Positions 30,801 to 61,473 of a stretch of DNA of 64,000 nt are shown here, in pieces. Both the position numbers and the translations under genes were made by a program. Numbering within the stretch: position 1 is the stretch's first letter; each line of letters opens with the position of its first letter. Below the pieces are notes generated by a model. It saw only the letters and a program-made list of their open reading frames with translations, was not told the DNA's origin and made no database searches. This DNA comes from an uncultured delta proteobacterium (lineage in GTDB: Bacteria > Desulfobacterota > Syntrophia > Syntrophales > UBA8958), in assembly GCA_903885795.1 (NCBI GenBank), contig CAISJV010000029.1, forward strand, positions 28,960 to 92,959, given 5' to 3'.

Positions 30801-31909
30801 TCCACCCAGGCCATGAGGTAGAGGGCACGGGCAAGGAAGTCGTTCCGGAGCTGCTCCTTACCGAGAAACTTCTCAGCCTCGTCGTCGAACAGCCCGCCGT
30901 TATATCCCATGATCCCGTATTCCGGATCGCCTTCGTTGACGGCCCCGATGAGCCCCTTCAGATGCTTCCAGAGGTCGTAGCCTTCATCATCCGTCCGTTT
31001 TCTCCATTGAAGACGATGAGCCTCAAGGCAGAGGGCGCCGATGGAATGTTTAGCATAGATTTCCCGCTTTTCGATCTGAGAGGGCAGGAGGCTCCGGGCT
31101 TCGGCATAGAAGAGGAACAGGCAGCGGTAAAGGAGTTTGACGGCGCTTTCAAAGATCTCCCGCCGTTCGTCATCGGTGTATTCGTCGCCCTTCCGGGGCG
31201 TTTCGGAGATGAAGCCGTTGCAGAGATATTGGAGGACTTCGTCAATCTGCTCCAGAAGCGGTGATTTGACCTTGTCTTCGAGGATCTTTTCCGAGGCCTT
31301 TATGTCCTGATCCAGTCGGCAATTATAAACCCCGTGAGCACGGGCGTCCTTCTCCCATCTATCCGTTTCTTCACCATCTATCTCCGCTGTGAAGGAATCG
31401 ACATGGAAAAAACGCTCAAATAAGGCGTATTCCTTCTCATCGTTCTGTGCGAGGGCCTCCGCGAGATTAAGCTCTACATATTCCTCAAAAGGCTTGCCGG
31501 TGCGGGTTGTATAGAGACGCCATTTTCCGCCGTCCGTTAGAATGCCCCAGTTCAGTTTGCGGTCTCTCAGTTGGGCGATCAGTTTACCAGGCCAGAAACG
31601 GCCGATAGACACATCATCCAGGTCCGCTCCCGGTTCGATAAGATAGAGGACTGAGACAGTATTGGAAAAACTGTAATCTTCATAAAGAAGGTAAACACCA
31701 GGAGCGTCGGGTTGGCCGGGCGGCACGAAAGAAAGATAACTGAGCGCTTGTTTGATATGGGTGCTCCAGATGGAATCAGCGCTTGAGCGGTCACTATGCT
31801 GCTGGGCATGGTAAAGGGTAGCCATACGACCCTGGCCGGCGTCGTCCAGTTCCAACTCGGAACGAATCTTATCAATAAAAAGAGTGCTAAAGAGCCCGTT
31901 ATTTCTCAT
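27854..31909 (-). CDS. pglX: PglX/Eco57I-type N6-adenine DNA methyltransferase
   Basis: WGILTDG, LGEMYE, RKQTGSYYTP, DPAMGSGHFL (motif I), YGVDLNPLAV, FHWALEFP, GNPPW (motif IV), C-terminal target-recognition region. Confidence 0.88.
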   Translation of the reverse strand: MRNNGLFSTLFIDKIRSELELDDAGQGRMATLYHAQQHSDRSSADSIWSTHIKQALSYLSFVPPGQPDAPGVYLLYEDYSFSNTVSVLYLIEPGADLDDVSIGRFWPGKLIAQLRDRKLNWGILTDGGKWRLYTTRTGKPFEEYVELNLAEALAQNDEKEYALFERFFHVDSFTAEIDGEETDRWEKDARAHGVYNCRLDQDIKASEKILEDKVKSPLLEQIDEVLQYLCNGFISETPRKGDEYTDDERREIFESAVKLLYRCLFLFYAEARSLLPSQIEKREIYAKHSIGALCLEAHRLQWRKRTDDEGYDLWKHLKGLIGAVNEGDPEYGIMGYNGGLFDDEAEKFLGKEQLRNDFLARALYLMAWVEPHDSNTEKEYRIPYRDLEVRHLGEMYETILEFSVTLADADRLRRRSKKGVEILLASGTTRQKGDGIIRKGDVYFGESALERKQTGSYYTPESLVHFLNAKAIISPLRDRFENNCRERFNLFSHQAKTGHDATIRRGATQSAIALVERFVREVILCFKLCDPAMGSGHFLVNAANQLTDFIVSLFAEIPIVEGMASPVNCEPNVWRRLVTRHCLYGVDLNPLAVHLAKLSLWLNGFARDHKLTFLDHHLRCGNSLIGIRSLSQLEKIPERNQEAKKKRKNAKRQLELPLLKDLTEAYRQAAQTMQSISQVAEDDTDRQKEMHEEVMAGKINPLLPLADLSTAYLMDDVIKPDDYRDIFLRLSHGERPVSVNELELHEKVKALTKRHHFFHWALEFPDVFNEQIGGFDAAVGNPPWDTWNPKTQEFFSSYDPSFRTLTKTEAGKRAEELCKDLNIKQAWHEYQSLFYEAACFFQNHPDYAHQDIKPPGSNLYKLFVERDFHCLGPHGRIGIILPAGFYSDSATKGLREFFFDTRTIESIYCFENRFPVVFKSVHNQFKFITLCIVKDQSNPNIRCAFMQHDPETLPAIEKRAIILKPEDIVRFSPDSLSLTEFNAQRDIEIAGKIYADFPLLGNTDASLPWRFPLLSVEFNMTHQSSMFVQNVDGYVLYEGKMINQFDHLFSSNSREVEKRDAEQYLRSKEMAHIGKNSVLGKSVAKLIQPIPLPFTEFRFGVRAIAASTNERALISTVLPSSVCCGNSLFTSIPWEYNKDVLLKDAIDNRWKISHYSYAQMIFVVSLFNSFCYDWLMRMKISTNLNVFILNQLPMPRLTDASFYFSAIVGRALRLICTTSDFALFWERVFCQQYQEGNIWYPEAAPIDTYGPTHEQQVRRRLRDEAMNLTQEWKAASGAYDRTGDRRDTGDRAQLRAEIDAYVAHLFGLTRDEFAYIIDTFPVMKRKEEQAFGEFISKRKCLEEYDRIASLI

Positions 31910-35189: not shown

Positions 35190-36029
35190 ATGACAGTAAA
35201 AGACGCTATTCACATTTTTCATATTTCACAGAAAAATGTCCATAGGAAAAGAACCACAGACAGCTACCGTTACCTTCTTGAACATCTTCAAAATCATTTT
35301 ACAGATACTCATGTAGAGGCGATCACCCCTGATCAAATCTACCAGTTTTTGGGAGATTTAACGGAGCATACGGCCAAGTCAACCAGGAGATTACGATATG
35401 CCCAGTTGAAAGCATTCTTCAATTTCCTGATCAATGAAAAAAGACATTCCATGAAGAATCCGTGTCAGGACTCGATCATGGTCAAGGCTTTCAAAGGTCC
35501 AAGGATGAAACAGAAGGATATTCTCAGCAGAGAAAGCGTTGATGAAATCATTTATCGGAGCAAAAAGACCAGGGACAGGCTGATACTTGAACTTCAGGCA
35601 AGATGCGGCATGAGAATAGGCGAGGTATTGAATCTCAGGGCATCGGATATTACGGACCGGAAACTGATGATCCGGGAACCTAAATCTGGAAAGGACATGG
35701 AAGTTGCCTTTATGACGGAATCGATCGCAAAGAGGCTGTCTGAATATGTCCGTGGCTTTCAGCATGATCCAGAGAGCAGGATCTTCCCGATATGCTATTC
35801 CTCCGCCTTATCCATGGTGAGGAAACTTGGCGAAAAGATCGGAATCCAAATCAGACCCCACGATCTGCGTCGATATTCGGCCACCTATGCCAGCCGCAAC
35901 GGCATTCCTCTGGAAGTCGTATCAAAGGTTCTTCTCAGGCATCAGGATCTCAAAACCACACAGATGTACCTGGGGAAAATCACCGATACGGAAGCAATAA
36001 GATGGATGGATGTGCTGCACGGTAATTGA
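35190..36029 (+). CDS. Tyrosine recombinase/integrase
   Basis: GMRIGE, PKSG, HDLRR, LRHQD and MYLG supply the R-K-H-R-H-Y catalytic set; SAM-like N-terminus. Confidence 0.92.
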   Translation: MTVKDAIHIFHISQKNVHRKRTTDSYRYLLEHLQNHFTDTHVEAITPDQIYQFLGDLTEHTAKSTRRLRYAQLKAFFNFLINEKRHSMKNPCQDSIMVKAFKGPRMKQKDILSRESVDEIIYRSKKTRDRLILELQARCGMRIGEVLNLRASDITDRKLMIREPKSGKDMEVAFMTESIAKRLSEYVRGFQHDPESRIFPICYSSALSMVRKLGEKIGIQIRPHDLRRYSATYASRNGIPLEVVSKVLLRHQDLKTTQMYLGKITDTEAIRWMDVLHGN

Positions 36030-38058: not shown

Positions 38059-40431
38059 TCATACGTCCATAGACACTATTCCTAAGCGATAGGCCTTCAT
38101 GAACTCATCCGTGTAATGCGCCTTCAGATAAGCTGTCTGATAGGCTATGATGGAGTATACTGTGGAGTGGGCTTTGTTGGAAACATATCCGGTGGAGGTT
38201 TCCATTTGGTTCCAGATCTTCATCGCCTTGGTTTTCAGGATATTTTTACCCTTTGCCCCATCGAGAAATTTCGACCGTTCCTTCTCCATACCCAGAAACA
38301 TCCTCTTACACATGACTCTCCTCAGTGTATCGGCTTCAGACATGATGTATCCACCGATAGCGCCTGCAATCTGCATGATCTGCTCCCGATAGATGATGAT
38401 ACCATAGGTCTCCTTCAGGATGTCATTGAGTTCAGGAACTTCATGGGTAATCTTCGTTTTCCCACGCTTACGGGCGATTAACTCGGGAATCATGCTCAAG
38501 GCGCTCGGGTGGTACATGGCAAGCAGGGCCATGACATCCTCAATACAATCGGGCTTCAGGTTTATGAGGTGATTCTTCATTCCCGAAGTCTGACACTGGA
38601 AAACGCCGTCCGTATCACCTCTGGAAAGGAGCTGATAGGTTTCCGGATCGTCCATCGGTAGATTATTGATATCAATATCTATGCCTTTGCCTTCCTTAAT
38701 GAAGCGGACGGCGTTCTGAATCACTGTGAGGGTCATGAGGCGTAGGAAATCGAATTTTATCAGTCCCAGGGCCTGTAGGTCGTACATGGAGAACTGAGTG
38801 ACAATGGCACCATCATCTTTTAGGTTCTTGTACAGCGGCACTCGTTCCACAAGAGGCGCATCGGATATGACCACACCGGCAGCATGGGTCGCTACATGAA
38901 CGTTTAGTCCCTCCAGGCGCTGGGAAATGTCGATCAACTTCTTGATCTTTTCGTTTTTCATGGCGGCCTTGTTGAGGCGCGGCTTATCTTTGAGGGCATC
39001 CTCCAAGGTTATCATGAATTTGTTGGGTAACATCTTTGCGATGGCGTCCACATCTTCGTAAGGAATGTTCATGGCCCGTCCTACGTCCCGGATCGCCGAT
39101 TTTGCACTCCTTTTCCCGAAAGTGATGATCTGGGCGACCTTGTCTTTTCCGTATCTTTCTGTGACATAACGGATGATCTCGTCGCGGCTATCTTCACCGA
39201 AATCGACAACGATATCAGGAAGCTCTTTCTGGTGCGGATTTAGTAAAGGCTCGAAAAAGAGACTATAGCGAATGGGGTCTATATTTGTTATCTGTGTGGT
39301 ATAGGCAACCAAACTGCCCGCTGTGGAGCCCCTTCCCGGGCCGACGGGGATATCTTTTTGTTTAGCATATTTAATAAAGTCCGAGACAATGAGGAAATAT
39401 CCCGCAAAGCCCATTTCCCTAATCACGGCAAGTTCTTCGAAGAGGCGCTTCTCGTAAATCTCCCGTGTTGCTGGGTCTTTCCCACGGAGTATGCGGGGCA
39501 TAAGCTCATCAAGTCCACGGATGACTGCGTCTTCCAACAATTCATCGAGATTCCTGTCGCCTTCTCTTGCAAAATTCGGGAGGGAAACCTTGCCAAACTG
39601 AATTTCCACGTTGCACCTTTCGGCAACTTTCACCGTATTTTTGATTGCTTCCGGGCAATAGTGAAAGAGTTTTTTCATTTCTTCCGGTGATCGGAAGTAT
39701 AAATGGCCCTTCCCGGAAGGGATTTGTTCCACATTCTCCATTATCTTGCCCTTCTGGATGCACATAAGGACTTCGTGAGCGGCGGAGTCGGCCCGGTTGA
39801 GATAATGGCAATTGTTGGTGGCCACCAAGGGGATTCCCAATTCACGGCTGATATCAATAAGTCCTTCGTTGACAGGTATTTGCTGGGGCAGGCCGTTTTC
39901 TATAATTTCCAGAAAGAAATTCCCTTTCCCGAAAATCCTTTCGTATTCCAGAGCTGCTTGCCTTGCCGCATTACAATTGCTTTGAGAGATTTGTTGGGCG
40001 ATTTCGCCATGAAGGCAGGCACTCAACCCGATAAGGCCCTCGTGGTAACGGGAAAGGATGTCCTTATCGATCCGTGGTCGGTTGCAGAAACCTTCAAGAT
40101 AGCCCGCCGTCGCCAGCTTTAGCAAATTCTGGTATCCGGTCATATTTTCCGCCAAGACGACGATGTGATGGGCTGTTTCTTCAGAGACTTCAGCATGTTT
40201 ATCAAAACGACTCCCATGGGCAACGTAAAGTTCACAGCCGATAATGGGTTTGATATCTGCTGCTTTCGCTTTTCTATAAAAATCAATAACGCCAAAGAGA
40301 TTGCCGTGGTCTGTAATCGCAACGGCAGGCATTCCGAATTGCTTGGCCTTCTCCAAAACGTCATTGATTTGTATCATTCCGTCAAGAAGACTGTAGTGGG
40401 TATGAACATGGAGATGGATGAAATCACTCAT
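38059..40431 (-). CDS. dnaE: DNA polymerase III alpha homolog, C-terminally truncated and catalytically degenerate
   Basis: PHP motifs HLHVHTHYSLLDG, TDHGN, PIIGCE; GPGRGS, HAAGVVI, KFDFL; but PDIVVDF and an end just after YLKAHY at 790 aa. Confidence 0.85.
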   Translation of the reverse strand: MSDFIHLHVHTHYSLLDGMIQINDVLEKAKQFGMPAVAITDHGNLFGVIDFYRKAKAADIKPIIGCELYVAHGSRFDKHAEVSEETAHHIVVLAENMTGYQNLLKLATAGYLEGFCNRPRIDKDILSRYHEGLIGLSACLHGEIAQQISQSNCNAARQAALEYERIFGKGNFFLEIIENGLPQQIPVNEGLIDISRELGIPLVATNNCHYLNRADSAAHEVLMCIQKGKIMENVEQIPSGKGHLYFRSPEEMKKLFHYCPEAIKNTVKVAERCNVEIQFGKVSLPNFAREGDRNLDELLEDAVIRGLDELMPRILRGKDPATREIYEKRLFEELAVIREMGFAGYFLIVSDFIKYAKQKDIPVGPGRGSTAGSLVAYTTQITNIDPIRYSLFFEPLLNPHQKELPDIVVDFGEDSRDEIIRYVTERYGKDKVAQIITFGKRSAKSAIRDVGRAMNIPYEDVDAIAKMLPNKFMITLEDALKDKPRLNKAAMKNEKIKKLIDISQRLEGLNVHVATHAAGVVISDAPLVERVPLYKNLKDDGAIVTQFSMYDLQALGLIKFDFLRLMTLTVIQNAVRFIKEGKGIDIDINNLPMDDPETYQLLSRGDTDGVFQCQTSGMKNHLINLKPDCIEDVMALLAMYHPSALSMIPELIARKRGKTKITHEVPELNDILKETYGIIIYREQIMQIAGAIGGYIMSEADTLRRVMCKRMFLGMEKERSKFLDGAKGKNILKTKAMKIWNQMETSTGYVSNKAHSTVYSIIAYQTAYLKAHYTDEFMKAYRLGIVSMDV

Positions 40432-40459: not shown

Positions 40460-41941
40460 TTACAAGCATTCTATAATCTTCACCATCGCCAGAGTATCAA
40501 GCTTGCAGTATTCCAGCAGTGATTTACGGATATTTGCTATCTCCGCCCGATCATCGGTCTGGTTCATGGCCGCGTATGCATCCATGGCCATCCCCCCGTT
40601 TTGAACATCCAGATGATCGTAGCTGAACTCGGGCAGCATGGCGGGCAAAACATTTTTCAAGGAATATGAACCGTGTTGTTGCCAGCGATAGATATGATAG
40701 TTGCGAAAGGGGGCGGCAAGATCACGGGTGTTTTCGATGATCTTTTCAATCTTATCCGCATGTTCCGGGAACCAGCAGGCCAGATCACGGAGCCTGGCAA
40801 TTTCAAAACCGCTAACGTAGGCCAAGATACAGGCATTGTCGGGTATTTCACTCACCAGTTTTTCTATCAGTTCTTTTCTCGGGTCTGTTCGAGGCATGGC
40901 TAAAAACTCATCGTGCTGCAATTCGTCCCCTCTCTGATCCGTATGGTGCAAAGAATATTGGAAGGGTACTTGCTGATATGGCCGTATGCCGTCATAAGGA
41001 GGGATCGCTTCCATGGAGGTTTCAAAATCGAGGTAATACATGGGGTACCAGAGAGAATCGAGAAATTCCTGCACGGCATCTTGATCAATATGATTCTTCT
41101 GGTGGAGCACGCCATCAAGCTGGAACTTCTGCCGCCATCCCAAGATATCGGGCGACACGTCTTCCATCTTGACGATTCCCTGACGACAGAGGGCAAAACC
41201 ATCCGGCTTGCCAATCTCCCTAAAATCAAAGACGGATGGGGATGGTATATGAGACCAGCAATGACCGACAAAGTCACAAGGATAATTTTGTTCACAGTGG
41301 GGACCGATATCGATAACCGGCTCATCCCCTTTCAGCATTGCCCGTTGCCTTGCAATTTCTTCCACAATGAAGGCCTGCTTGTCCTTAGCAATCGTCGTAA
41401 TATCTTCCTTATAAAAGAGTTTATCCACTTCGATTGCGCCCTGCCGGACATACTCATTATTGATGTGAACGATAAATACTCTGTATATGGGCAATCCCGC
41501 GCCTGTCATGACATAATATTGAACGGAGGCATCATCGAGATGGTAATCTTTAACGCTAGTCGAAGCCTTGACCTCGTAGACATCCCAGCCTCCATCCCCC
41601 CGGTGGATAATATCGGCTTTGACAAAGACACCATTGTAAAAGAAGGTGGCTTCATAAATCGTCTGGCAACCCTGAGCTATCAGGTTGACGGTCATTTCAA
41701 GCTGCTTCTCGTGCGAAAGTCCATCATAAGGGACCAGCACACCGCCGGGAAAAAGGCCCTGCGCCAAGTCGCCGATTTCATAGCCTCCCGCAAAGCGTTT
41801 TTCCGTCTCTTCCGATACCTCGTCTTTCAGCTCCGGCCGGTACTTCTGCAGGTACAGAGATTTGTGGCACCGGACACCTCGAACAAAAAGGCTTTTGCTA
41901 AGATAGGCGTCATCCCGCTTCGTTTCATTGTTGTCTTTCAT
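40460..41941 (-). CDS. DUF2779-domain protein (Cas4-like nuclease + RNase H-like exonuclease)
   Basis: LSKS..RC, ADII..YEVKAST, GPHC..PCDFVGHCW, YLDFET, QVPFQYSLH, SYSLKNVLP, YCKLDT. Confidence 0.85.
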   Translation of the reverse strand: MKDNNETKRDDAYLSKSLFVRGVRCHKSLYLQKYRPELKDEVSEETEKRFAGGYEIGDLAQGLFPGGVLVPYDGLSHEKQLEMTVNLIAQGCQTIYEATFFYNGVFVKADIIHRGDGGWDVYEVKASTSVKDYHLDDASVQYYVMTGAGLPIYRVFIVHINNEYVRQGAIEVDKLFYKEDITTIAKDKQAFIVEEIARQRAMLKGDEPVIDIGPHCEQNYPCDFVGHCWSHIPSPSVFDFREIGKPDGFALCRQGIVKMEDVSPDILGWRQKFQLDGVLHQKNHIDQDAVQEFLDSLWYPMYYLDFETSMEAIPPYDGIRPYQQVPFQYSLHHTDQRGDELQHDEFLAMPRTDPRKELIEKLVSEIPDNACILAYVSGFEIARLRDLACWFPEHADKIEKIIENTRDLAAPFRNYHIYRWQQHGSYSLKNVLPAMLPEFSYDHLDVQNGGMAMDAYAAMNQTDDRAEIANIRKSLLEYCKLDTLAMVKIIECL

Positions 41942-46193: not shown

Positions 46194-47195
46194 ATGAGTG
46201 CTCACAACATGAGAAAGATGATTGATGCCATCACCCTCCTGTCCCAGCCAACAGGAACAACCATCTCAGCTCTGTGCGATCGCCTGGACATCGGCCAGCG
46301 CCAGGCCTACCGCTTTATCGAATCACTACAGGTAGATTTCAAATTCATCATCGACAAAGATACGTCTATACCGGGCGGCTCCGTTCGCTATTTTCTGGCA
46401 AAGGAATATGTCAGACGCCTGTCCGAGATCAAAGTAGCCGATCTGAACCTGTCAATGGCTGAGATCATCGCCCTGTACCTCCTCAAGGGACATGGAAATA
46501 TTTATCGGGGTACGGAGATCGAAGCCAATATCGAACGGGCCTTCGCCAAGCTGGATGTCTTTGTGCCTGAGGGATTTGCCCGTAAGTTGGAGAGGATAAA
46601 GACCCTCATCATTTCAGCAGATAAATTCAATAAGGACTATGCGGATAAGGTGGATATTATCGACGACCTGACCGAAGCAATGCTTCAGCAAAAGACCTGC
46701 CGCGTTGAATATCACTCATTTAACGATGACAAGATCAAGAATTTCAAGATTGATCCTCTGAAATTCTTCGACTGGAAGGGCGGCCTTTATCTGTTTGTGC
46801 GGACAACCACTTATGGACATATCCGCATGCTCGCAGTCGAAAGGATTGAAAAGCTGGAAATAGGGAAGATCTCTTTCGATTATCCCGATGACTTCAAGCC
46901 GGAAGAATTGCTGGATGAAGCATTCGGTGTGGTTTATGATGACCCGATTACCGTGAAGATCCTTTTTGGTGCCGATCAAGCTCGTTACATAAGAGAACGG
47001 ACATGGGCCAAAAGTCAGAAGATAAACGAGCAAAAGGACGGTTCCATCATCCTGACTATGAAGACGTCAGGATGGTGGGATGTTCGCCAGTGGCTACTTT
47101 CCTTTGGTCCTGATGCGGAACTTCTGGAACCAAAGGAAAAGAGGGAAGAGATGAAGGGATTGACTGAAGATATGATTGCTAAGTATAGTAAATAA
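46194..47195 (+). CDS. WYL-domain transcriptional regulator (wHTH-WYL-WCX)
   Basis: N-terminal HTH (RQAYRFIESL), VEYHS..IDPL..GLYL..AVERI, WLLSFGPDAELLEP. Confidence 0.92.
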   Translation: MSAHNMRKMIDAITLLSQPTGTTISALCDRLDIGQRQAYRFIESLQVDFKFIIDKDTSIPGGSVRYFLAKEYVRRLSEIKVADLNLSMAEIIALYLLKGHGNIYRGTEIEANIERAFAKLDVFVPEGFARKLERIKTLIISADKFNKDYADKVDIIDDLTEAMLQQKTCRVEYHSFNDDKIKNFKIDPLKFFDWKGGLYLFVRTTTYGHIRMLAVERIEKLEIGKISFDYPDDFKPEELLDEAFGVVYDDPITVKILFGADQARYIRERTWAKSQKINEQKDGSIILTMKTSGWWDVRQWLLSFGPDAELLEPKEKREEMKGLTEDMIAKYSK

Positions 47196-54006: not shown

Positions 54007-54786
54007 TCAGGGTAAATAAAGATTCATGTCAGCATCGCACTCCGAGCAATAAGGGGTGCCGCACTCGGCTATGTGCCTGAAACTGATTTGGTAAACCTTC
54101 TCGCTGCATATCGGACAGATCCAGGTGCTCAGGGCCGGGTCGATCAAATGCCCTTCCGCGTCGCGCGCTTGCGGCGGTGTGAATGTCCGGCTGTTTTCCG
54201 GATCATGCTTCGACGCACCGACTACGGCGCAACAAGTCCGCTCAGGCCAGTAATTGCAACCGTCAGGGCCGACTTCGGTCATTATGTCACGAAGCTGATT
54301 CAACCACTCGTTACCGTCATCTTCGTACTCCCTGGCATTGTCAATTCTGTAATTGACCTTCGCTTCCAATGCATAGTAAATCTCGATCCAGTCTTCCTTG
54401 GTCAGCGTTCTTCGCCCTCCAACAATACCGAGAACGCTATTTTTCTCTTCCGCCTTGGATTCATTCTTTTTCTCGAACTCTTCTTCAGTCCGAGTCTGGA
54501 TTTCCTCCTCCACGTTGTCTTTCCCATCATCATGCTTCTCGGCGGTGTAATGATTGTATGCCACGCGATCGTACGTATAGAATTCAATACCGCAAGCGTC
54601 GCAGAGATGTCGCAGATCGGCCAGCATGTCCGTGATGCAAGCCCCCGTATCCTCCACATCCTCGTAGCCGGCGCGCAAGGCGCGTTTGGCATTGATGAGG
54701 CGGTAGAGTATGGGGTTTTCGTCCGGTAGATTCTCTGGAGTTTCCCCAAGTTTGTAATCTGGGATTTCTTCGATGTTCATTGTCAA
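54007..54786 (-). CDS. Hypothetical acidic protein with a C-terminal zinc ribbon
   Basis: ITDMLADLRHLCD motif; CPIC..CSEC. Confidence 0.7.
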   Translation of the reverse strand: MTMNIEEIPDYKLGETPENLPDENPILYRLINAKRALRAGYEDVEDTGACITDMLADLRHLCDACGIEFYTYDRVAYNHYTAEKHDDGKDNVEEEIQTRTEEEFEKKNESKAEEKNSVLGIVGGRRTLTKEDWIEIYYALEAKVNYRIDNAREYEDDGNEWLNQLRDIMTEVGPDGCNYWPERTCCAVVGASKHDPENSRTFTPPQARDAEGHLIDPALSTWICPICSEKVYQISFRHIAECGTPYCSECDADMNLYLP

Positions 54787-54818
54787 CGTCCTTTCTCCTT
54801 TTCAGGTAATGTTAACTC

Positions 54819-54880
54819 TACGCCTGTGAACACAACCCGAGGGTTGTTAAAGCCTCCCGCAGGATGACGTTCAGGGCGTA
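54819..54880. repeat. Structured three-way-junction repeat, copy A
   Basis: TACGCC-TG-TGAAC-A-CAACC cgag GGTTG-TTAAA-GCC TCC cgca GGA T GAC-GTTCA-G-GGCGTA. Confidence 0.8.
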
Positions 54881-54914
54881 AATAGTGTCCGGTACTTCAA
54901 TCGAAACCGATCGA

Positions 54915-55014
54915 AGGACGTAAAAAAGCCGCACCTGTCCCGTTGTCTTACGGAGCAGCCATGCGGCTATGTTCGTGACCTACTAAAAATACTAACTGTC
55001 TATATACTACTTCC
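54915..55014 (-). promoter_or_regulatory. ~100 bp promoter/attenuator-like repeat, copy 1
   Basis: Near-identical to 61527-61629; nested hairpin followed by T6 on the minus strand. Confidence 0.7.
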
Positions 55015-55051
55015 GAAGAGGAGCTTTTAATTCGACAATCGGATTTTGGGC

Positions 55052-55087
55052 AAAAAAAGGGGGGAAGGCATAAGCCTCCACCCCTTT
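55052..55087 (-). terminator. Intrinsic terminator
   Basis: AAAGGGGTGGAGGC-TTAT-GCCTTCCCCCCTTTTTTT on the minus strand. Confidence 0.7.
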
Positions 55088-55119
55088 CCCCAACGTCCGG
55101 GGTGCTACCCATTTATCTC

Positions 55120-55181
55120 TGCACCTGTGAACACAACCCGAGGGTTGCTAAAACCTCCCGCAGGAGTATGTTAAGAGTGCA
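55120..55181. repeat. Structured three-way-junction repeat, copy B
   Basis: TGCAC-CTGTGAACA-CAACC cgag GGTTG-CTAAAAC-CTCC cgca GGAG-TATGTTAAGA-GTGCA. Confidence 0.75.
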
Positions 55182-55185
55182 AGTG

Positions 55186-55407
55186 TTAATACGGCTTGCA
55201 AGCTTGGATAGCCTGTTTACACTGAGCATCATCAAGCATTTCAATATACTTAAATTCCTTGGGAATGTTCATTATTTTGCCGAGCCAGGCATAGCCCATG
55301 CTTCGAACTTCCGCTTTTGAAATCCCCTGTGTCATCTTTCGACTCCAAAGGTTATCGAAATACTTATGCGTTTCCTTTTTCAGCTTCCGCAATTCAGCAT
55401 TAGCCAA
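55186..55407 (-). CDS. C-terminal half of a DUF3268 (zinc-finger family) protein
   Basis: ANAELRKLKKETHKYFDNLW..RSMGYAWLGKIMNI; the N-terminal Cys motifs are absent. Confidence 0.6.
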   Translation of the reverse strand: MANAELRKLKKETHKYFDNLWSRKMTQGISKAEVRSMGYAWLGKIMNIPKEFKYIEMLDDAQCKQAIQACKPY

Positions 55408-55412
55408 TCTGC

Positions 55413-56261
55413 CTAATTGCCGGGTTTGAGGCGATTTCCGCCTGCGATACTGTTAAGTTTTGCCAAAAGATCCTGCCTCTTGAATTCGATGTGCAGGGTT
55501 CCGGCTTTAAACCACTTCAAGTGAAAATAATCCGTCTCCGTTTCCCACTGATTGTTTCGACATGCTTCCGTAAGGGCAGTAATGATGTCGCCAGGCCACT
55601 TAATCGGGCCTTTACCATCCATTAGGTGAAAAGCATTGTCGAGAGATCGAAGTTCTGCCTCGTAGGAGCTGCTTACCCTACACCCACTGTGATAACTGTC
55701 CATGACTCTTTCCCTTACAGCTTTTCGACCAACCTCATACTGAGTATTGGTTTTATGCCGGGACCTGTGCGGGCGTAAAAATTCAAACGCTTCGGTGATG
55801 GCCTCTTTGGCTAGATTTCCAACATTTGGCATCATGTCCTCGATGGTTCCAATAGCATTAGCCATTGTTACATCGGGAAGATCTCCGTTTTTGAGTTGGG
55901 CATCGAGCTCCGTGCGGCGGGCCACAGACATAAGGTTGTAAAATTCGCACTTCAGGAAAATATATTTCCAAAAGCACTGCTTTAACTTCCTAAGAGATGT
56001 TGCAAGAGTGGTGGGTGACAATATTTCCATTGAAATCACATAAGCAGGCCCGACGACTGATACCGTTCTCTCCTCGGCGTTTTTTAACAACCGAAACCCC
56101 TCTTCTGTTTCCGCCTTAGCCTTCTCGTAATTTTCTACGAGGGTGGGAAGGGTAAGATATTTGGTGATGTCGGTGGCTGTTTTGGCTTCCGTGTCTGCGG
56201 CTGCCATCTGTTGGAAATTCTGCTCAATTTGAGCGAAGAACAGGTCTGATTCTTTGTTCAT
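55413..56261 (-). CDS. Stand-alone DUF4942-domain protein
   Basis: FWKYIF, HKTN..VGRK, LDNAFHLMDGK, ETDYFHLKWFKAGTLHIEFKRQDLLAKLN. Confidence 0.75.
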   Translation of the reverse strand: MNKESDLFFAQIEQNFQQMAAADTEAKTATDITKYLTLPTLVENYEKAKAETEEGFRLLKNAEERTVSVVGPAYVISMEILSPTTLATSLRKLKQCFWKYIFLKCEFYNLMSVARRTELDAQLKNGDLPDVTMANAIGTIEDMMPNVGNLAKEAITEAFEFLRPHRSRHKTNTQYEVGRKAVRERVMDSYHSGCRVSSSYEAELRSLDNAFHLMDGKGPIKWPGDIITALTEACRNNQWETETDYFHLKWFKAGTLHIEFKRQDLLAKLNSIAGGNRLKPGN

Positions 56262-56335
56262 GTGGTCTTTGTCTCCTTTTTCTTGTCGCCCTATGCTGCA
56301 AGGGTGAGGTGGCCAGAAGATTGGTTAATGTTAAA

Positions 56336-56400
56336 TAGCGACTGTGGACACATTCGCGAGGAATGCTAAAGTCTCCCGCAGGATGACGTCCATGGCGTAA
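56336..56400. repeat. Structured three-way-junction repeat, copy C
   Basis: CTG-TGGAC-A-CATTC gcgag GAATG-CTAAA-GTC TCC cgca GGA T GAC-GTCCA. Confidence 0.8.
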
Positions 56401-56426
56401 AATCGGTTCGTGTTCAGGGATTCGGG

Positions 56427-56849
56427 TTAGGCGATAAAAAACGTGCCTCTGTCTTGACGATATGTTGCGAAAGAATCATGAGTAAACGTTTTGGCGATGT
56501 AACCCTCTCCATAGAATTCATTCATGCTACTGATCTCGGCGTTGTAATGCTCTTCGTCGGGACAAACGACAATCATTTCGTCTCCTTCCAGATAGCTAAC
56601 AATTGTCAGCTTTGCTTTGTTGCACCAAATGCCAAAGTAGGAAGCATCTTGGTTTGTGTCGTATTGTTCCCATCCTTCTTCGGAAGTACAAATATCGAAA
56701 TCATACTTGTATCGATTTCCGAAAGCAGAAGAACGGTTTACAATTTGGTTCCCCCGTTCATTTGTTCTTGTAGCCATTTTTTTCTCCTTTGATCCGCCTG
56801 CCCAGATTTGATGTACACACTCCGAAATACAACATCTCTCTTCCGGCAA
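56427..56849 (-). CDS. Plasmid-type hypothetical protein
   Basis: RYKYDF..GWEQYDTNQDASYFGIW..YLEGD; likely start is MATRT after AAAGGAG. Confidence 0.7.
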   Translation of the reverse strand: MPEERCCISECVHQIWAGGSKEKKMATRTNERGNQIVNRSSAFGNRYKYDFDICTSEEGWEQYDTNQDASYFGIWCNKAKLTIVSYLEGDEMIVVCPDEEHYNAEISSMNEFYGEGYIAKTFTHDSFATYRQDRGTFFIA

Positions 56850-56902
56850 AATCCAAGATTTTGCCTATTGCGCACATTATCCGCGCCAGGACCTTTTTCA
56901 TT

Positions 56903-58021
56903 CTATTCATTGTTTTCTCTCCCTTTCGGTAATGTTTTTGGCAGTTGATGCCTATGCCTGAGTAGCAACCGACGCGCAGCCTGAACGGCTTCATTGTCGG
57001 GATGACCATTTGCTGTTGCGATCAACTTTTCAATCCTGCTTGACGGCCTGATTTCTCCGGCAGCTATTTTGGATCGGTACTCTTCGCGAAGGGTTTCTCT
57101 TTTTTCGACTAAGGCCCTGTCTTTCCGCGCCTGAGCTTCGATCAGGCGTTTTCGGATATTGCCTTCGGGAATGTTTTTGTGAAGCGCACAATCTCCGATA
57201 TCCTGTCGAGAGGCACCATTTTGCGTAAGGTACGTTTCTTCGTCGATAACCCTCGGTGGTTGAAGGTCGGGATAGCCGTCCAGCACAATAGATGGGACGT
57301 TCTTGCCCTCGGCCAAGGCTTTTTTGACTGAATCGTAATGATCCAATGCCACTTTGCCAATGGGTAATTCAGCCATGTGTTTTCGTGGCAAACAATGGAT
57401 GTCGTTTGGAAGTTCGTCGGCTGCACCCTTGAAAAGCATGCTGTCAGCGTAATCGCTCCTGGTTATCTGCCATGGCGCCACTTTTTCCCTTTCCTGAAGA
57501 TCAGGGTAGCTCATGAGTACTTTTGCAGAAACTGATTTTCCTTCTATAATCGCTTGCCGAACAACACACTTATGGTGCGTCAGCACAGTCGCCGGTAAAT
57601 CACGATCATGCATGATAAGGGTTTTGCGATTTGGAAGGCGGAAAAGATTGAGACCTGCCTTTTTGTCGTAAAGTTGGAGGATTTGGCTCATGATGGTTGT
57701 CACGCCGACTTCCGTTTGGCCGGTTGCAACTACTTCATGGGCAATTTGCCAGAGGGACGAAAATCCCTCATCTGTTGTGGTCTGCACGTTGCGCATTCCA
57801 CTTTGGGCATTCCCCGATTTTCCGTGTCCTTCGCGAACAGGGATGAAAATATGATTTTCTTTCCACTCCGTCAGAGTCATCTCCCAGGGTGCCAGCTCGC
57901 CGTCTTTGCGATCAGCAAAGATGTCGTCAAGGCATTCGGAAGATTGATCTGTGGGAAGGGGAAGGGAAGGGGGTGCTTCAGTGGAAGGCTCCGTCTTTGA
58001 AAGCAAAGACAGAAGAGTCAT
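56903..58021 (-). CDS. Polyvalent-protein-like hypothetical protein with an internal duplication
   Basis: Two copies of PWx(M/I)T..H..V..A..EGK.V...VL..YPDL. Confidence 0.7.
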   Translation of the reverse strand: MTLLSLLSKTEPSTEAPPSLPLPTDQSSECLDDIFADRKDGELAPWEMTLTEWKENHIFIPVREGHGKSGNAQSGMRNVQTTTDEGFSSLWQIAHEVVATGQTEVGVTTIMSQILQLYDKKAGLNLFRLPNRKTLIMHDRDLPATVLTHHKCVVRQAIIEGKSVSAKVLMSYPDLQEREKVAPWQITRSDYADSMLFKGAADELPNDIHCLPRKHMAELPIGKVALDHYDSVKKALAEGKNVPSIVLDGYPDLQPPRVIDEETYLTQNGASRQDIGDCALHKNIPEGNIRKRLIEAQARKDRALVEKRETLREEYRSKIAAGEIRPSSRIEKLIATANGHPDNEAVQAARRLLLRHRHQLPKTLPKGRENNE

Positions 58022-58333
58022 AATGTTGTCTCCTTTCGGTCAGGTAATGGAATGTCTGGGGATGTGGTTCTTGCGGCGTTTTTCGCCTCTTTCGATCCAC
58101 CGCTTTTGGACTACAATGTGGTGCATTGGTTCGGCGATCACTTCCTCCTGGCGAACAAGTGGGCTTCCAGTACGATTATGTAATCATCGCTCTGTAAGCT
58201 GTCCACGCTGCCTGGACGAAGAGCATCAACTATTGCCCTAAATTCGTCAATCATACCCAGTTTCTTTTTGTTCATGATCGTTCCTCCTGTTATCCCGGCC
58301 CCAATTGGCCGGGTGTCTTTTCGTTTCGTGGAA

Positions 58334-58705
58334 TCAGACAGCTACCCTTTCTTCCACTGTTTGGGTTGTTACCGTGAGACACATACAAGCGGGTATTTCC
58401 GTTACATGTGCGCAAATAGGCGTTGCTCCTATCCCATCGTCAACGAAGAAGAGGTCCACATCTGCATTGGTATAATGCGCCCTTATTCCCAACAGGCCAT
58501 AAGGTGCAAGCTCGTGTGAATCAGCAATGTGGGATGCTTTGGGAATTTTGAATTCCTTTATAATTTCCTTAATTGCGTAGCCTTGGGAAAATCCCATAGA
58601 GAAAGGCAATTCTTCCCACGTCATCATCTTGATAGCAGCCAGGACTATGTCCTGATTGCCTTCCCAGTATTCTCGGCCTACGTTCAGCCAGTCTATTCTT
58701 TCCAT
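58334..58705 (-). CDS. Hypothetical protein
   Basis: AAAGGAG RBS. Confidence 0.65.
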   Translation of the reverse strand: MERIDWLNVGREYWEGNQDIVLAAIKMMTWEELPFSMGFSQGYAIKEIIKEFKIPKASHIADSHELAPYGLLGIRAHYTNADVDLFFVDDGIGATPICAHVTEIPACMCLTVTTQTVEERVAV

Positions 58706-58959
58706 AGCGTTCTCCTTTTATAAGTATTGGGCTTTCGAGTTAATCGATGCCTCCTGTCAATATTTCGCCCTTTCCTTTTCTTGGGTTGTTTTTATCAACT
58801 AAAGATCCCAACCTGTAGGCAATCTCAGTCATCGCTTTCCACTGGTGATCACCTGCCGGGATGCGAAGGGCGTTTTCTATCATCCCAGCAAAATACATAA
58901 CCATTTCTCTCCCGTGTTTAGTCATCACCATTTCTCCTTTCGGTAATGCGGTACTCGAT

Positions 58960-59199
58960 TTAATCGACGCCTCCGGCCAATGCTTCGCCGCAGTCGCAGC
59001 AGACGACGCAAATGACCGGTATCTCGTAACGGGGATCCTCGACGGTCCAAGAATACAGACGGTGAGGGGCGTGCTTGCAGATCGTGTTGGGGGCCGGCTT
59101 AAACTTCTTCTTGCCTGCCGCCTCCTTTTTCTGAACACCACTCTTGCCCTTGGAATAGGAGTCAAAGCCAAACTGTGACTGCTTCATGATTCCCTCCAT
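58960..59199 (-). CDS. Small Cys/His-rich hypothetical protein
   Basis: CKH..H..CCDC. Confidence 0.55.
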   Translation of the reverse strand: MEGIMKQSQFGFDSYSKGKSGVQKKEAAGKKKFKPAPNTICKHAPHRLYSWTVEDPRYEIPVICVVCCDCGEALAGGVD

Positions 59200-59435
59200 G
59201 TCAAGCGAGCATAGATTTCGCTCGCCAAGTCTTTATCATACTTCTTTCCAATGACCTGGTCATGCATGATGATTGTATTACACCTGCTGTACTTCATCGC
59301 CTCATTCACATAGATCTCGCAAAATATGCAGAACCAGCGAATTCCTCTTCCGTTATCCCACATTTGGGCCATAGCCCGATCGCAATGGGGACAAACCTCG
59401 AACACGCCATTAGACAATTGACGTTTCATTTTCAT
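59184..59435 (-). CDS. Small zinc-ribbon protein
   Basis: CPHC..CIFC; AAGGAG RBS. Confidence 0.6.
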   Translation of the reverse strand: MKMKRQLSNGVFEVCPHCDRAMAQMWDNGRGIRWFCIFCEIYVNEAMKYSRCNTIIMHDQVIGKKYDKDLASEIYARLTWRES

Positions 59436-59465
59436 TCTCCTTTTTAGGTAATGTTTGGGATTGGT

Positions 59466-59753
59466 TTAGCGGAACACGAACTCAATGGCAGAGTGGGTGA
59501 AAAAATATACCCGCTTGCCGTGATGCCTTGACCGTGAGTAGGCGACGCAGTAGTCGCCAGCCATTGTCAGGCCACGTCGAGGGTGTCGTGCGTATGCCAG
59601 TTGCTGTTCGATTTCTGCCAGACACTCCCGGTTGACGTGCTTCAAGAACGCCCGCCGGGTTACATCTCTCGCTTGATCTACCATGTCGGATAGGCCACCT
59701 TCTGAATGGACATCATTCGTTGGCCAAGCAACGCAGGAGCTGTAGTAATTCAT
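59466..59753 (-). CDS. Phage/plasmid hypothetical protein
   Basis: GGAGG RBS; VAYSRS..GKRVYFFTHSAIEFVF motif. Confidence 0.7.
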   Translation of the reverse strand: MNYYSSCVAWPTNDVHSEGGLSDMVDQARDVTRRAFLKHVNRECLAEIEQQLAYARHPRRGLTMAGDYCVAYSRSRHHGKRVYFFTHSAIEFVFR

Positions 59754-59762
59754 ATATGCCTC

Positions 59763-60182
59763 CTAAAAATTGTCCGTTGGATGACGGGGCTTGGGCCATT
59801 CGTCAGCTTCTTCGAACATGATTTCCGTCTCCGCATTACGGAGGGCCAGCTCCGCCGTCCTGAGTTCATCCTCCAGTCGTCTGTGCCGGAAGATTCCAGG
59901 AAGCGCATCTACTCCTTCTTTAGTCTGCGCCGCATCCTCTTTGTGAAGTCTCTCGCGGAAGGAATGGACATGTTGAATAATCTCCCGGACTTGTTCCGGG
60001 GACCTCTCTTCGTTCTCCTTCGTATTGAATATGACGGATATGTCTCCATTATTGTTAATAAATTCTACGTCCTTATGACCCAATGTTATTATCCAGTGTA
60101 CAATTTTATCAAGGATTACGGAAATTTCATCGAGCGCAATTTCCCTACTTTCGTCTGGGTTCATGTCAATTACTATTCTCAT
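59763..60182 (-). CDS. Hypothetical protein
   Basis: AAAGGAG RBS. Confidence 0.6.
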   Translation of the reverse strand: MRIVIDMNPDESREIALDEISVILDKIVHWIITLGHKDVEFINNNGDISVIFNTKENEERSPEQVREIIQHVHSFRERLHKEDAAQTKEGVDALPGIFRHRRLEDELRTAELALRNAETEIMFEEADEWPKPRHPTDNF

Positions 60183-60202
60183 TTTGTTCTCCTTTCTTAG
60201 AT

Positions 60203-60250
60203 AAAAAAAGACCCCCGGAACGATGCAATTGCAGTTCTTTCCGGGAGTCC
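60203..60250 (-). terminator. Intrinsic-terminator-like hairpin inside the gene array
   Basis: GACTCCCGGAA..TTCCGGGGGTC followed by T7 on the minus strand. Confidence 0.65.
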
Positions 60251-60258
60251 TTAGTGTT

Positions 60259-60450
60259 TCAGATTGATGAGTAGGTAGCAGCCGATTTCGCAGCCGTGTC
60301 CGCCATTACTCGCAAACTGTCCAGGTCAATACGACGGCCTTCTTCGATAATGAAGGTCGTACCGCACGAATCACACCGCAGTTTGTCAACGAGGCAGGTC
60401 AGATGCGACCGCTGGTCCTCTCCGCATTTGGGACATTGATACTTCATCAT
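60259..60450 (-). CDS. Small zinc-ribbon protein
   Basis: CPKC..CDSC; AAGGAG RBS. Confidence 0.6.
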   Translation of the reverse strand: MMKYQCPKCGEDQRSHLTCLVDKLRCDSCGTTFIIEEGRRIDLDSLRVMADTAAKSAATYSSI

Positions 60451-60769
60451 GGCTAATCTCCTTCCGGTAATCGTCGTTACGCATCTACATTGGCGATCTT
60501 AATGCAGGTGAGGCGAGTAATCCTGGACAGGATCACCGCCATCTCATGCACATCGCTTTCCATTGCCAGAAAGGTCCTGGTCCACGTTCCCTTGCCAGGG
60601 ATTTGAAACACAAACTCGAAACTTTTCATGACTTTTCTCCTTTCCATGCTGTCAAAAGTTTTGATTATCAAAATAGTGCAGGGACTTTCGACAGCGGTTT
60701 GGGGTAATAAAATGCCGCCCGTGCCTCTTGAGAGAGGTCGGTACGGCAATGAGAGTTAAATCCTAGTCC

Positions 60770-60833
60770 CTGGAACTGTGAACACATCCATGAGGGATGC
60801 TAAAGCTTCCCGCAGGATAGCGTTCAGGTGCAG
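60770..60833. repeat. Structured three-way-junction repeat, copy D
   Basis: CTG-TGAAC-A-CATCC atgag GGATG-CTAAA-GCT TCC cgca GGA T AGC-GTTCA. Confidence 0.8.
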
Positions 60834-61059: not shown

Positions 61060-61473
61060 TCAAAAAGGCACGTCGTCATCCATGTAGCTGCCATCCGGGG
61101 ATGCTGTCATTCCAGGCTGCTGTGCTCCAGGATCGTCGTCACTCTGCTGCTTCTTTTCGAGAAGCTTCATGTCGAACAGGATGGCTTCGGTTTTGTACCG
61201 TTTCACACCTTCCTTGTCCTCCCATGATCGAGTTTTGAGTCGGCCCTCAACAAAGACCAAGCGGCCCTTTACGAGGTACTGACCAGTGATTTCTGCCAGC
61301 TTGCCCCAACACACGCAGGACAACCATTCGGTTTCCTTAATCGGACTTCCGGATTTGTCCTTGCGAACATAATCGGATGCAACCGAAAAGCTGGTGACCT
61401 GTGCTCCGTCCGGTGTAAACCTAACTTCAGGATCCCTTCCGAGACGTCCAATAAACTGCACTTTGTTCAACAT
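61060..61473 (-). CDS. ssb: Single-stranded DNA-binding protein
   Basis: NKVQFIGRLGRDPEVRFTPDG, KGRLVFVEGRLKTRSW, C-terminal DDDVPF. Confidence 0.96.
   Translation of the reverse strand: MLNKVQFIGRLGRDPEVRFTPDGAQVTSFSVASDYVRKDKSGSPIKETEWLSCVCWGKLAEITGQYLVKGRLVFVEGRLKTRSWEDKEGVKRYKTEAILFDMKLLEKKQQSDDDPGAQQPGMTASPDGSYMDDDVPF

Follow-up and report, generated by a model that had tools for sequence, protein, structure and literature searches.

The element described here is a structured repeat lying between the genes of an F-type integrative conjugative element (ICE). In its probable action it comes closest to the leader, operator and antitermination RNAs of mobile elements, and in its placing to the Frpo/ssi elements found in plasmid leading regions, although it is a member of none of these groups. 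It occurs in a 64 000 nt stretch of DNA, referred to below as the window, from an uncultured delta proteobacterium of the Syntrophales (GenBank assembly GCA_903885795.1, contig CAISJV010000029.1, positions 28 960 to 92 959 of the forward strand). Among the better-known systems with which it compares, put of HK022 is a cis-acting structured RNA of two stem–loops placed at the start of a co-directional mobile-element operon with internal terminators, and the MS2 coat-protein operator presents a bulged A a few pairs below a 4 nt loop, upstream of a start codon and at a constrained distance from it. The conAn2 RNA of the pLS20 type, a large RNA at the start of its operon, has a comparable cis-acting arrangement (PMC8191782). 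The Frpo/ssi elements, as portrayed in PMC11541004, are repeated, orientation-fixed, structure-forming and intergenic, and stand beside ssb and establishment genes; the single-stranded DNA (ssDNA) promoters of plasmid leading regions must, according to the same paper, lie on the transferred strand, which serves as template. The element of the window has features in common with each of these, and it represents a new and rare family of structured elements of conjugative islands that no described RNA family matches.

Four copies of the element, A to D (Table 1), are present in the window, all of them intergenic with respect to mechanically called open reading frames (ORFs) and all in one orientation, as was reported in the original prediction, which was made by reading the letters of the sequence. 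A pattern built from their shared blocks matches the window four times, at copies A to D, whereas 100 dinucleotide shuffles gave a mean of 0.00 matches and a maximum of 0; over the whole genome (4 016 048 bases in 95 contigs) the pattern again finds copies A to D only, and a reversed control pattern finds none. A covariance search with filters off detected no degenerate extra copies in window positions 13000–64000 or in eight related loci. The repeat is real, and it is confined to the conjugative island. The helix, linker and outer-stem changes listed in the original prediction are all in the sequence: in plus-strand letters, P1 is TGAAC/GTTCA and becomes TGGAC/GTCCA in copy C, P2 is CAACC/GGTTG, CATTC/GAATG or CATCC/GGATG, the base of P3 is GTC/GAC or GCT/AGC beneath TCC-CGCA-GGA, the linker is (C/T)TAAA, and the outer stem is TACGCC/GGCGTA or TGCAC/GTGCA. 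Read on the plus strand, the P3 base of copy A contains a C.A, and copy B, the most degraded of the four, is mismatched both there and in P1; copy D is structurally intact.

The family was extended with covariance models and sequence patterns. A first model (R1) matched three of 151 related genomes, these being the window's own, a same-genus genome (G007, 72.4 bits) and one with a 20.4-bit match (E-value 0.0099) that is taken as chance, and an improved model (R2) matched none of 150 other genomes drawn across the phylum. An exact-pattern scan of species-representative genomes gave no stretches, and a looser pattern gave 19 stretches from metagenomes and five from IMG/VR. Over these 24 loci and the G007 locus, R1 made 50 matches at E-values up to 0.1, of which 30 are strong (58.8–87.1 bits) and 20 are weak opposite-strand echoes (14.4–19.6 bits). 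With the window copies included there are 34 strong instances and 16 distinct sequences, 12 of them beyond the window's four and coming from metagenome contigs, 'viral' contigs and one same-genus genome. The label 'viral' of the five contigs is that of IMG/VR, and their genes, which encode a PD-(D/E)XK nuclease and a Gp3-like factor, fit either a phage or another mobile element; the copies in loci L036 and L037 are the window's own, so that these two loci do not count as independent of it. Fourteen of the 16 variants match a pattern that fixes the blocks CTGTGRACACA, TGYTAA and CCGCAGG and leaves the covarying positions free, the G007 variant being identical in sequence to four pattern-matched loci, while the remaining two (L029b and L030b, second copies in loci found by the pattern) depart from it and vary inside the fixed blocks. 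No relatives were found by blastn and megablast against plasmid and phage collections, with copy C among the queries, two further scans of viral contigs yielded no new variants, and a locus search based on DUF4942 returned two loci, both without the element. The family is thus rare and narrow: about 300 genomes of the phylum were sampled and two had it, and it comprises 16 distinct sequences in all.

The element also stands apart from described RNA families, as had been supposed. Rfam 15, whose 4227 models include hammerhead, twister, pistol, hatchet, STAXI, radC, DUF3268 and CRISPR repeats, gave no match in the window at gathering score. Relaxing the E-value to 10 brings up four weak matches, of which three are away from the elements and one, at 15.8 bits against a gathering score of 128, spans T1, the terminator next to copy B, together with roughly the first 22 nt of that copy. 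Nine related loci (65 816 bases, E-values up to 0.1) gave a single match, unrelated to the element, and neither the CRISPR repeats nor other Rfam models show similarity to it. A tRNA-like reading was rejected, ARAGORN having identified no gene, and full-text literature searches, with supplementary files outside their scope, turned up no description of the motif.

When the 16 distinct variants are aligned in gene sense (alignment A4) and the predicted three-way junction is scored on the alignment, standard pairs occupy 93.5 % of 352 cells (16 variants by 22 pairs), and double-sided changes are seen in 12 of the 22 pairs, in 41 cells. The variants are related to one another, so that counts of cells overstate the independent events and the pair-level figure of 12 in 22 is the safer one. 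None of 500 column shuffles reached the observed pairing, double-change count or covariation score, and in slid controls, with partners moved by 1–3 columns, pairing falls to 35–47.5 %. RNAalifold, given the alignment alone, returns the same junction with 20 pairs, ten of them with double changes, and adds a pair that closes P2 (columns 42–60), which is G.U in 15 variants and A-U in copy A. The three-way junction is maintained by compensatory change and there is selection on a folded single strand, in agreement with what the original prediction had concluded from covariation among the four copies.

The element is about 62–66 nt long and is encoded on the minus strand. From the 5′ end inward it consists of an outer stem, P0, of 6–7 bp, a small internal loop (C opposite CA) and the 5 bp stem P1; the hairpin P3 abuts P1 and has a covarying 3 bp base, a bulged A, the pairs UCC/GGA and a UGCG loop, and it is followed by the single-stranded junction (C)UUUA, the hairpin P2 (five or six covarying pairs, a variable loop and the closing G.U) and then the return strands of P1 and P0. 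The three junction strands are 0, 4–5 (UUUA) and 0–1 nt long. The invariant letters cluster in the P3 hairpin (the bulged A, UCC/GGA and UGCG), in the CUUUA junction and in the internal loop between P0 and P1. In 15 of the 16 variants the sense strand has UGCG as the P3 loop, with C-G as its closing pair, and we take this to be a loop of the UNCG type, especially stable and favoured in RNA. Minimum free energy folding of single sequences often prefers a different, rod-like fold, which is possible because UCC/GGA is common to P2 and P3. Double-sided changes are absent from the 12 pairs specific to the rod, three of which are disrupted in seven or eight of the 16 variants, and because the rod is without compensatory support we consider the junction to be the selected fold. 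A conformational switch between junction and rod may nevertheless take place.

The fold was originally drawn on the plus strand, and in this respect the prediction has to be revised, since it is the minus strand, on which all the neighbouring genes lie, that is favoured. Wobble cells on the minus strand comprise 24 G.U as against 5 A.C over the 16 variants (15 against 1 in P1 and P3 alone), pairing cells amount to 93.5 % on this strand and 88.1 % on the plus strand, and the pair of columns 42–60 would be A.C in 15 variants on the plus strand and so is unable to form there. With RNA parameters the consensus fold has a mean energy of −19.6 kcal/mol in the sense direction and −13.8 kcal/mol in the antisense direction, the sense fold being the lower in all but two of the 16 variants, copy C and L030b. 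On the wobble counts, the 42–60 pair and the folding energies we reject a functional fold of the plus strand and place the selected fold on the minus strand, the sense strand of the flanking genes. With DNA parameters the mean for the same fold is −6.6 kcal/mol and three of the 16 variants are weaker than −3 kcal/mol, and modelled in this way the element appears to be only marginally stable as DNA.

These last figures bear on a hypothesis included in the original prediction, that the element is an ssDNA signal, which is weakened both by the coding-strand fold and by the marginal DNA stability. Such a signal would act on the transferred strand, where the folded junction would be a priming site for a DnaG-like primase of the ICE or an early ssDNA promoter, and in plasmids repeated structured ssDNA promoters do precede genes of the kind found here (PMC11541004). 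The setting resembles a leading region, with ssb, DUF4942, many small co-oriented ORFs and F-type transfer genes, and all copies share a single orientation, as a strand-specific DNA signal requires; moreover, the ICE encodes a CHC2 zinc-finger/Toprim primase, at 107385–108422 of contig C29, and in L029 and L034 the element lies directly after the primase gene. Frpo hairpins, however, are several times longer than the element, and the plus-strand DNA fold of the region from ssb to copy D, although it contains several small hairpins, includes no long hairpin with −35 and −10 boxes. Early ssDNA transcription needs a signal on the template strand (PMC11541004), whereas the fold of the element is favoured on the coding strand. 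The much shorter length, the lack of a −35/−10 duplex hairpin and the position of the fold on the non-template strand argue against membership of the Frpo/ssi group, and RNA is favoured over DNA because of the marginal DNA stability, the coding-strand fold and the absence of a promoter-box hairpin between ssb and copy D. We thus regard an ssDNA signal as unlikely, although a priming role may exist if the transferred strand is the coding strand. A relaxase or an oriT, which would identify the transferred strand, was looked for without success: nothing matched the Relaxase and TrwC families, and TraI_2 gave a sub-threshold match on another contig only.

A reading of the element as a sigma-70 promoter was also rejected, as there are 15 promoter-like sites against a shuffle mean of 14.4 and no consistent hexamers upstream of the copies; promoters of the ECF-like and sigma-54-like kinds, judged by eye, were set aside too. 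We note that copy C contains on its plus strand (56345–56372) a promoter-like TGGACA-16 nt-TAAAGT after TG, pointing away from the genes, which is the only such match inside an element. Because the last position of its −10 box is T in just five of the 16 variants, an antisense promoter in copy C seems unlikely.

The positions of the elements, with distances scripted from ORF calls that are mechanical throughout, point to a role in the expression of the genes that follow. All 16 variants are in the sense of the flanking ORFs. A same-strand stop codon lies 4–27 nt before the outer stem in 12 of them (at least three of these, L030a, L029a and L029b, are qualified by an intervening hairpin or terminator and a doubtful ORF call), 55–67 nt before it in three, and 226 nt before it in copy D. 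On the other side, a Shine–Dalgarno sequence and start codon are found 31–34 nt past the outer stem in seven variants (A, L033, L030a, L030b, L028, L027 and L034), 65–75 nt past it in two (C and L029b) and 183–192 nt past it in the five G007-type variants. Copy B has no start codon or ORF behind it before copy A is reached, and the scripted TTG start 21 nt from copy D is not credible, a terminator-like hairpin intervening. The linker of copy A (Table 1) is common to L033, L030a and L030b and is present in part in copies C and D, but the 31–34 nt spacing is constant across three unrelated linker sequences, and because it holds across all three we consider a 5′ leader to be the native position of the element.

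Within the window, T2 precedes copy A by about 45 nt, and the 259-aa gene starts 32 nt beyond that copy. Copy C is intercistronic: the stop of a 140-aa gene is 27 nt upstream of it, and the DUF4942 gene starts 75 nt downstream. The DUF3268 stop and the outer stem of copy B are 4 nt apart, and T1 follows copy B after about 30 nt; copy D precedes a hairpin and U-run by about 22 nt. The placing of copy B between a gene end and a terminator, which had been noticed from the sequence, therefore holds when it is read on the minus strand, and we agree that the element is not a classic 5′ riboswitch.

The closeness of copies B and D to terminator hairpins 20–30 nt downstream, in a co-directional array, raises the question of processive antitermination, which the original prediction had put forward as a put-like RNA; the nascent junction, alone or with an ICE factor, would modify the polymerase so that it reads through the terminators of the gene block. 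Copy D sits between ssb and a terminator that directly follows ssb in the same-genus genome G001, a gene with a weak NusG/Spt5-like match heads the array, and an RNA-based version of such a mechanism is documented in conjugation operons (PMC8191782). A 65 nt junction that fuses transcription units from a position before the terminator would be a new structural class, and a portable antitermination module spreading between ICEs. A terminator stands before the next ORF in only two of the 16 variants, however (three with the doubtful L029a), copies A, L030a and L028 come after T2 and not before it, no copy is near the start of the array, and G001 has the same terminators and the NusG-like gene without the element. 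The known antitermination RNAs differ too in being located at the start of the operon and in form, put having two stem–loops and conAn2 being large, whereas the copies of this 62–66 nt three-way junction are scattered and most have no terminator ahead of them. Both antitermination itself and a new structural class of it seem quite unlikely to us on this evidence.

The NusG-like gene was considered as a partner in its own right. Its product, P0001, is a 155-aa protein encoded on the minus strand of contig C29 (93617–94084, to the right of the window; positions 3618–4085 of locus L047) by the first gene of the leftward array, and its Spt5/NusG KOW match (TIGR00405, E-value 3.1e-06) is weak and below the cut-off. 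It is present in two of 151 genomes (G000 and G001), with 65 % identity in G001; a PDB sequence search gave a best E-value of 0.65, and an AlphaFold2 single-sequence model was unusable (mean pLDDT 37.5). A comparison may be drawn with the ops site of RfaH and the LoaP leader hairpin, in that a NusG-like gene heads the same array and the element is on the sense, and so non-template, DNA strand; the element is, however, far larger than ops, does not co-occur with the paralogue and is not in an operon leader. A recruitment site for a NusG paralogue was rejected because P0001 and the element fail to co-occur (in G001 and G007) and no copy is near the array start, and for a NusG-paralogue partnership one further locus record was likewise without a match.

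Comparison with related ICEs shows that the element is portable. In L034, whose proteins are 75–90 % identical to those of the window ICE, the primase and AAA_5 genes are separated by about 950 nt that include several small ORFs and one element, a spacer that is just 46 nt long in the window genome, and in L029 elements precede the AAA_5 and DUF3150 genes. G001 has a compact version of the ICE, with ssb, the HD protein, transfer genes and the ssb terminator, and no element at all; its terminator-like hairpin is about 32 nt past the ssb stop, and in the window genome about 290 nt, including copy D, are interposed. Copy D retains the first 7–8 nt of the shared linker and then joins the G001-like ssb hairpin. 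In L030 two copies flank a 48-aa ORF before the homologue of the 259-aa gene, where the window has copy A alone. Copies B and D look like stranded modules whose ORF was lost by recombination, and such repeats would themselves promote recombination. The ORF of 48–49 aa adjoins elements both in L030 (421–565) and in L034 (4589–4735, minus strand); it has a hydrophobic N-terminus and a conserved C-terminal GGYDDDVR.P and could be a small membrane peptide.

The same polymorphism might instead reflect a repeat that functions at the DNA level, as a folded recombination site or a small selfish insertion that shuffles gene modules and has no RNA role. Presence and absence do differ at equivalent sites of related ICEs, the two copies around the 48-aa ORF of L030 as opposed to one in the window are what recombination between direct repeats would leave, and the island has a gene for a XerD-like recombinase. 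The integron attC sites are similar in being structure-conserved and strand-specific, lying between small promoterless ORFs and varying in presence among relatives. The attC core motif RYYYAAC...GTTRRRY is nevertheless absent from the base of the fold on both strands of alignment A4, with no R and L core motifs to be seen, and the conserved part is the interior of the fold and not its base; an attC array is likewise not seen, there being four elements among about 17 ORFs and a XerD-like recombinase, the sole one observed, some 19 kb away. Not every ORF is followed by the element, its immediate surroundings showed neither an integron integrase nor a HUH transposase, no target duplications were noticed, and homologous recombination between repeats of any kind accounts for the polymorphism. 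We therefore hold a purely DNA-level repeat to be highly improbable.

Two further possibilities, both of them named in the original prediction, concern the RNA itself. The element might be released as a trans-acting RNA particle, by excision or, for copies B and D, by termination, and act as a decoy or regulator by titrating a protein of the host or of the ICE, such as one that defends the recipient. A decoy would be consistent with the flexible position (5′ leader, intercistronic or 3′ untranslated region) and fixed sense orientation, the several copies per island, the invariant loop, bulge and junction, the compact stable fold and the surroundings, which resemble those of establishment and anti-defence genes. 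The constant 31–34 nt spacing to the start codon across three linker types would not be expected of a free RNA, though, and the RNA contigs of the region lie off the elements, with nothing that points to processing or accumulation; similarity to CRISPR repeats or Rfam models is lacking as well. We consider this very unlikely. Alternatively, the junction could be a self-cleaving ribozyme of a new class, or an RNase processing site, that cuts polycistronic mRNA between cistrons. Its form is that of a small three-way junction whose junction and loop nucleotides are conserved, and it lies between mobile-element cistrons, a position often taken by bacterial self-cleaving ribozymes, and the single-stranded CUUUA flanked by hairpins resembles sites of the RNase E type. 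No Rfam ribozyme model matches it even at E-values up to 10, however, and the hammerhead core has junction strands of 7, 3 and 1 nt with fixed letters, which the strands of the element do not fit; a hammerhead was rejected on these grounds, and the chance of any cleaving or processing function appears slight in the extreme.

We prefer to see the element as a sense RNA that acts in cis, as a portable leader module before accessory ORFs. We infer a leader because the repeat is confined to a family of conjugative elements, its junction has been kept, its strand and orientation are those of the genes, its distance to start codons is constrained in about half of the variants and its letters are invariant at particular places. 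The element would be transcribed within operon mRNAs and would set the expression of the downstream cistron post-transcriptionally, and copies B and D would be modules that lost their ORF through recombination. In the version that we prefer, the invariant face made by P3 and the junction would be docked by a dedicated RNA-binding factor of the ICE or of the host, which would place the genes in a post-transcriptional regulon; alternatively, the element might be a compact stabilizer or insulator that keeps the ribosome-binding linker free. The P3 hairpin recalls the MS2 coat-protein operator in its bulged A a few pairs below a 4 nt loop, its location upstream of start codons and its constrained distance to them, but it is one arm of a three-way junction, and the element ends about 18 nt before the Shine–Dalgarno sequence and does not cover it.

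Several observations weigh against the leader reading. The asymmetry of wobble pairs identifies a strand and not a molecule, G.T being the best-tolerated mismatch in DNA too, and the two RNA contigs of the region that were obtained from three metatranscriptome runs, 151 nt each, are both off the elements. Classical translational operators lie nearer to the Shine–Dalgarno sequence than the 18 nt or so seen here, and the five G007-type variants have a second conserved leader interposed, which puts their start codon at a distance of about 185 nt. The invariance of the blocks fixed in the search pattern is partly by construction, and the sampling is narrow. The view of copies B and D as remnants is after the fact, with no ORF behind either and with D intact. 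Finally, the candidate partner P0001 occurs in G001, which has no element, and has no match in the element-bearing G007. Taking both sides together, we judge a sense RNA acting in cis on expression to be the likeliest of the readings, with the odds about even, and the version in which a factor is bound to be possible but distinctly doubtful.

Other conserved sequences accompany the elements. T1, the spacer and T2 form a module (window 54920–55098, minus strand) that is conserved in loci L030 (119–290) and L028, with the two terminators about 115 nt apart and a spacer containing ...GTAGTAT.TAGACAGTTAGTATTTT.AGTAGGTCACGAA...; T2 was read from the sequence, and the script detected a terminator of its type in L028 only. 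The bin of this module in DNA run X5 has a depth of 26.5, compared with about 8 around it, and the module might encode a small RNA or serve as an attenuator leader. In the G007-type loci the second leader, of about 110 nt, follows the junction and reads GGGAAC...CGTTGACC...GGCGCTGAGTTTCCAGG...CGCGACAGCGGCG; it is found in L014 (G007) at about 1310–1500, in L029 at 1712–1890 and downstream of the element in L032, L023 and L038. A repeat near the ribosome-binding site (...GCCTCGAAAGAGGCAGGCATGGCAAAGGAGG) recurs before other genes in the G007-type loci, and neither this repeat nor the second leader has an Rfam match. The junction and first letters of P2, CUUUAGCA, resemble by eye the core of the rrn-leader motif of the host, GCTCTTTGGCAA, a lead towards an antitermination site of the nut/rrn type, in which a single-stranded boxA adjoins a hairpin. 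Half of CUUUAGCA takes part in pairing within the junction, and the 5′ portion of the rrn-leader motif is missing. In the host 16S leader (contig C27, about 94730–95180) the boxA-like GCTCTTTGGCAA is located about 95 nt upstream of the 16S start.

Table 1. Elements, neighbouring genes, terminators and left-side cargo genes, in window coordinates
Feature	Positions	Strand	Remarks
Copy A	54819..54880	minus	Outer stem to outer stem; 85.3 bits with covariance model R2
Copy B	55120..55181	minus	73.8 bits with R2
Copy C	56337..56399	minus	77.3 bits with R2
Copy D	60771..60833	minus	In the ssb 3′ untranslated region; 80.2 bits with R2
Linker after copy A	54770..54818	minus	Conserved TTAACATTACC...AAAAGGAG, including ribosome-binding site and start
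Terminator T1	55050..55092	minus	Strong intrinsic terminator downstream of copy B
Terminator T2	54922..54968	minus	Terminator-like hairpin and U-run upstream of copy A
Hairpin after copy D	60706..60748	minus	Imperfect, with U-rich run; directly after ssb in the G001 ICE
259-aa gene	54007..54786	minus	No assigned function; downstream of copy A
DUF3268 zinc-finger gene	55186..55407	minus	From family scan; upstream of copy B
DUF4942 gene	55413..56261	minus	E-value 5.7e-39; downstream of copy C
ssb	61060..61473	minus	Pfam SSB, E-value 3.3e-33; upstream of copy D in sense direction
Topoisomerase	13574..15763		Cargo; bacterial type
BrxL	16685..18667		Cargo; BREX system
Methylase	27854..31909		Cargo; Eco57I/MmeI-type, BREX system
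XerD-like recombinase	35190..36029		Cargo
Pol III alpha-like protein	38059..40431		Cargo
DUF2779	40460..41941		Cargo
WYL regulator	46194..47195		Cargo

To judge from mechanical ORFs and family scans, the minus strand carries all credible genes between about 50 kb and the window's end, and besides the genes in Table 1 this block encodes an HD-domain protein and about a dozen small proteins without a family. The surroundings of the element resemble a leading-region island for establishment and anti-defence. Elsewhere on the contig are genes for TraG_N, TraH, TraF, TraU, TrbC, TraN and a coupling-protein-like ATPase, and because such Tra-type genes occur along it the host structure is an ICE with F-type transfer genes; further along are a CHC2/Toprim primase, a CbbQ-like AAA protein, DUF3150 and a CobT/VWA protein. 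The F-type transfer genes at about 96.8–117 kb of contig C29 comprise TraG, TraH, TraF, TraN, TraU, TrbC and a TraF-type peptidase. Neither a TraC/VirB4-type ATPase nor a relaxase was identified on contig C29 with the families tried, so that part of the island may be missing or cut off by the assembly, or its relaxase may be of an unrecognized kind. The left-side cargo (window 13574–49960) includes the BREX system and the other genes given in Table 1.

Structured non-coding elements that travel with conjugative accessory genes are poorly charted outside enterobacterial plasmids, and the element is a compact candidate from an environmental genome of the anaerobe type, with good covariation support and a defined strand. 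Although its rarity limits its immediate reach, a leader operator or insulator, if that is what it is, would mean that establishment genes are co-regulated post-transcriptionally, and the element might then serve as a portable expression part; if instead it were an antiterminator or a priming signal for the ICE primase, it would represent a new class of mechanism in the biology of ICEs.

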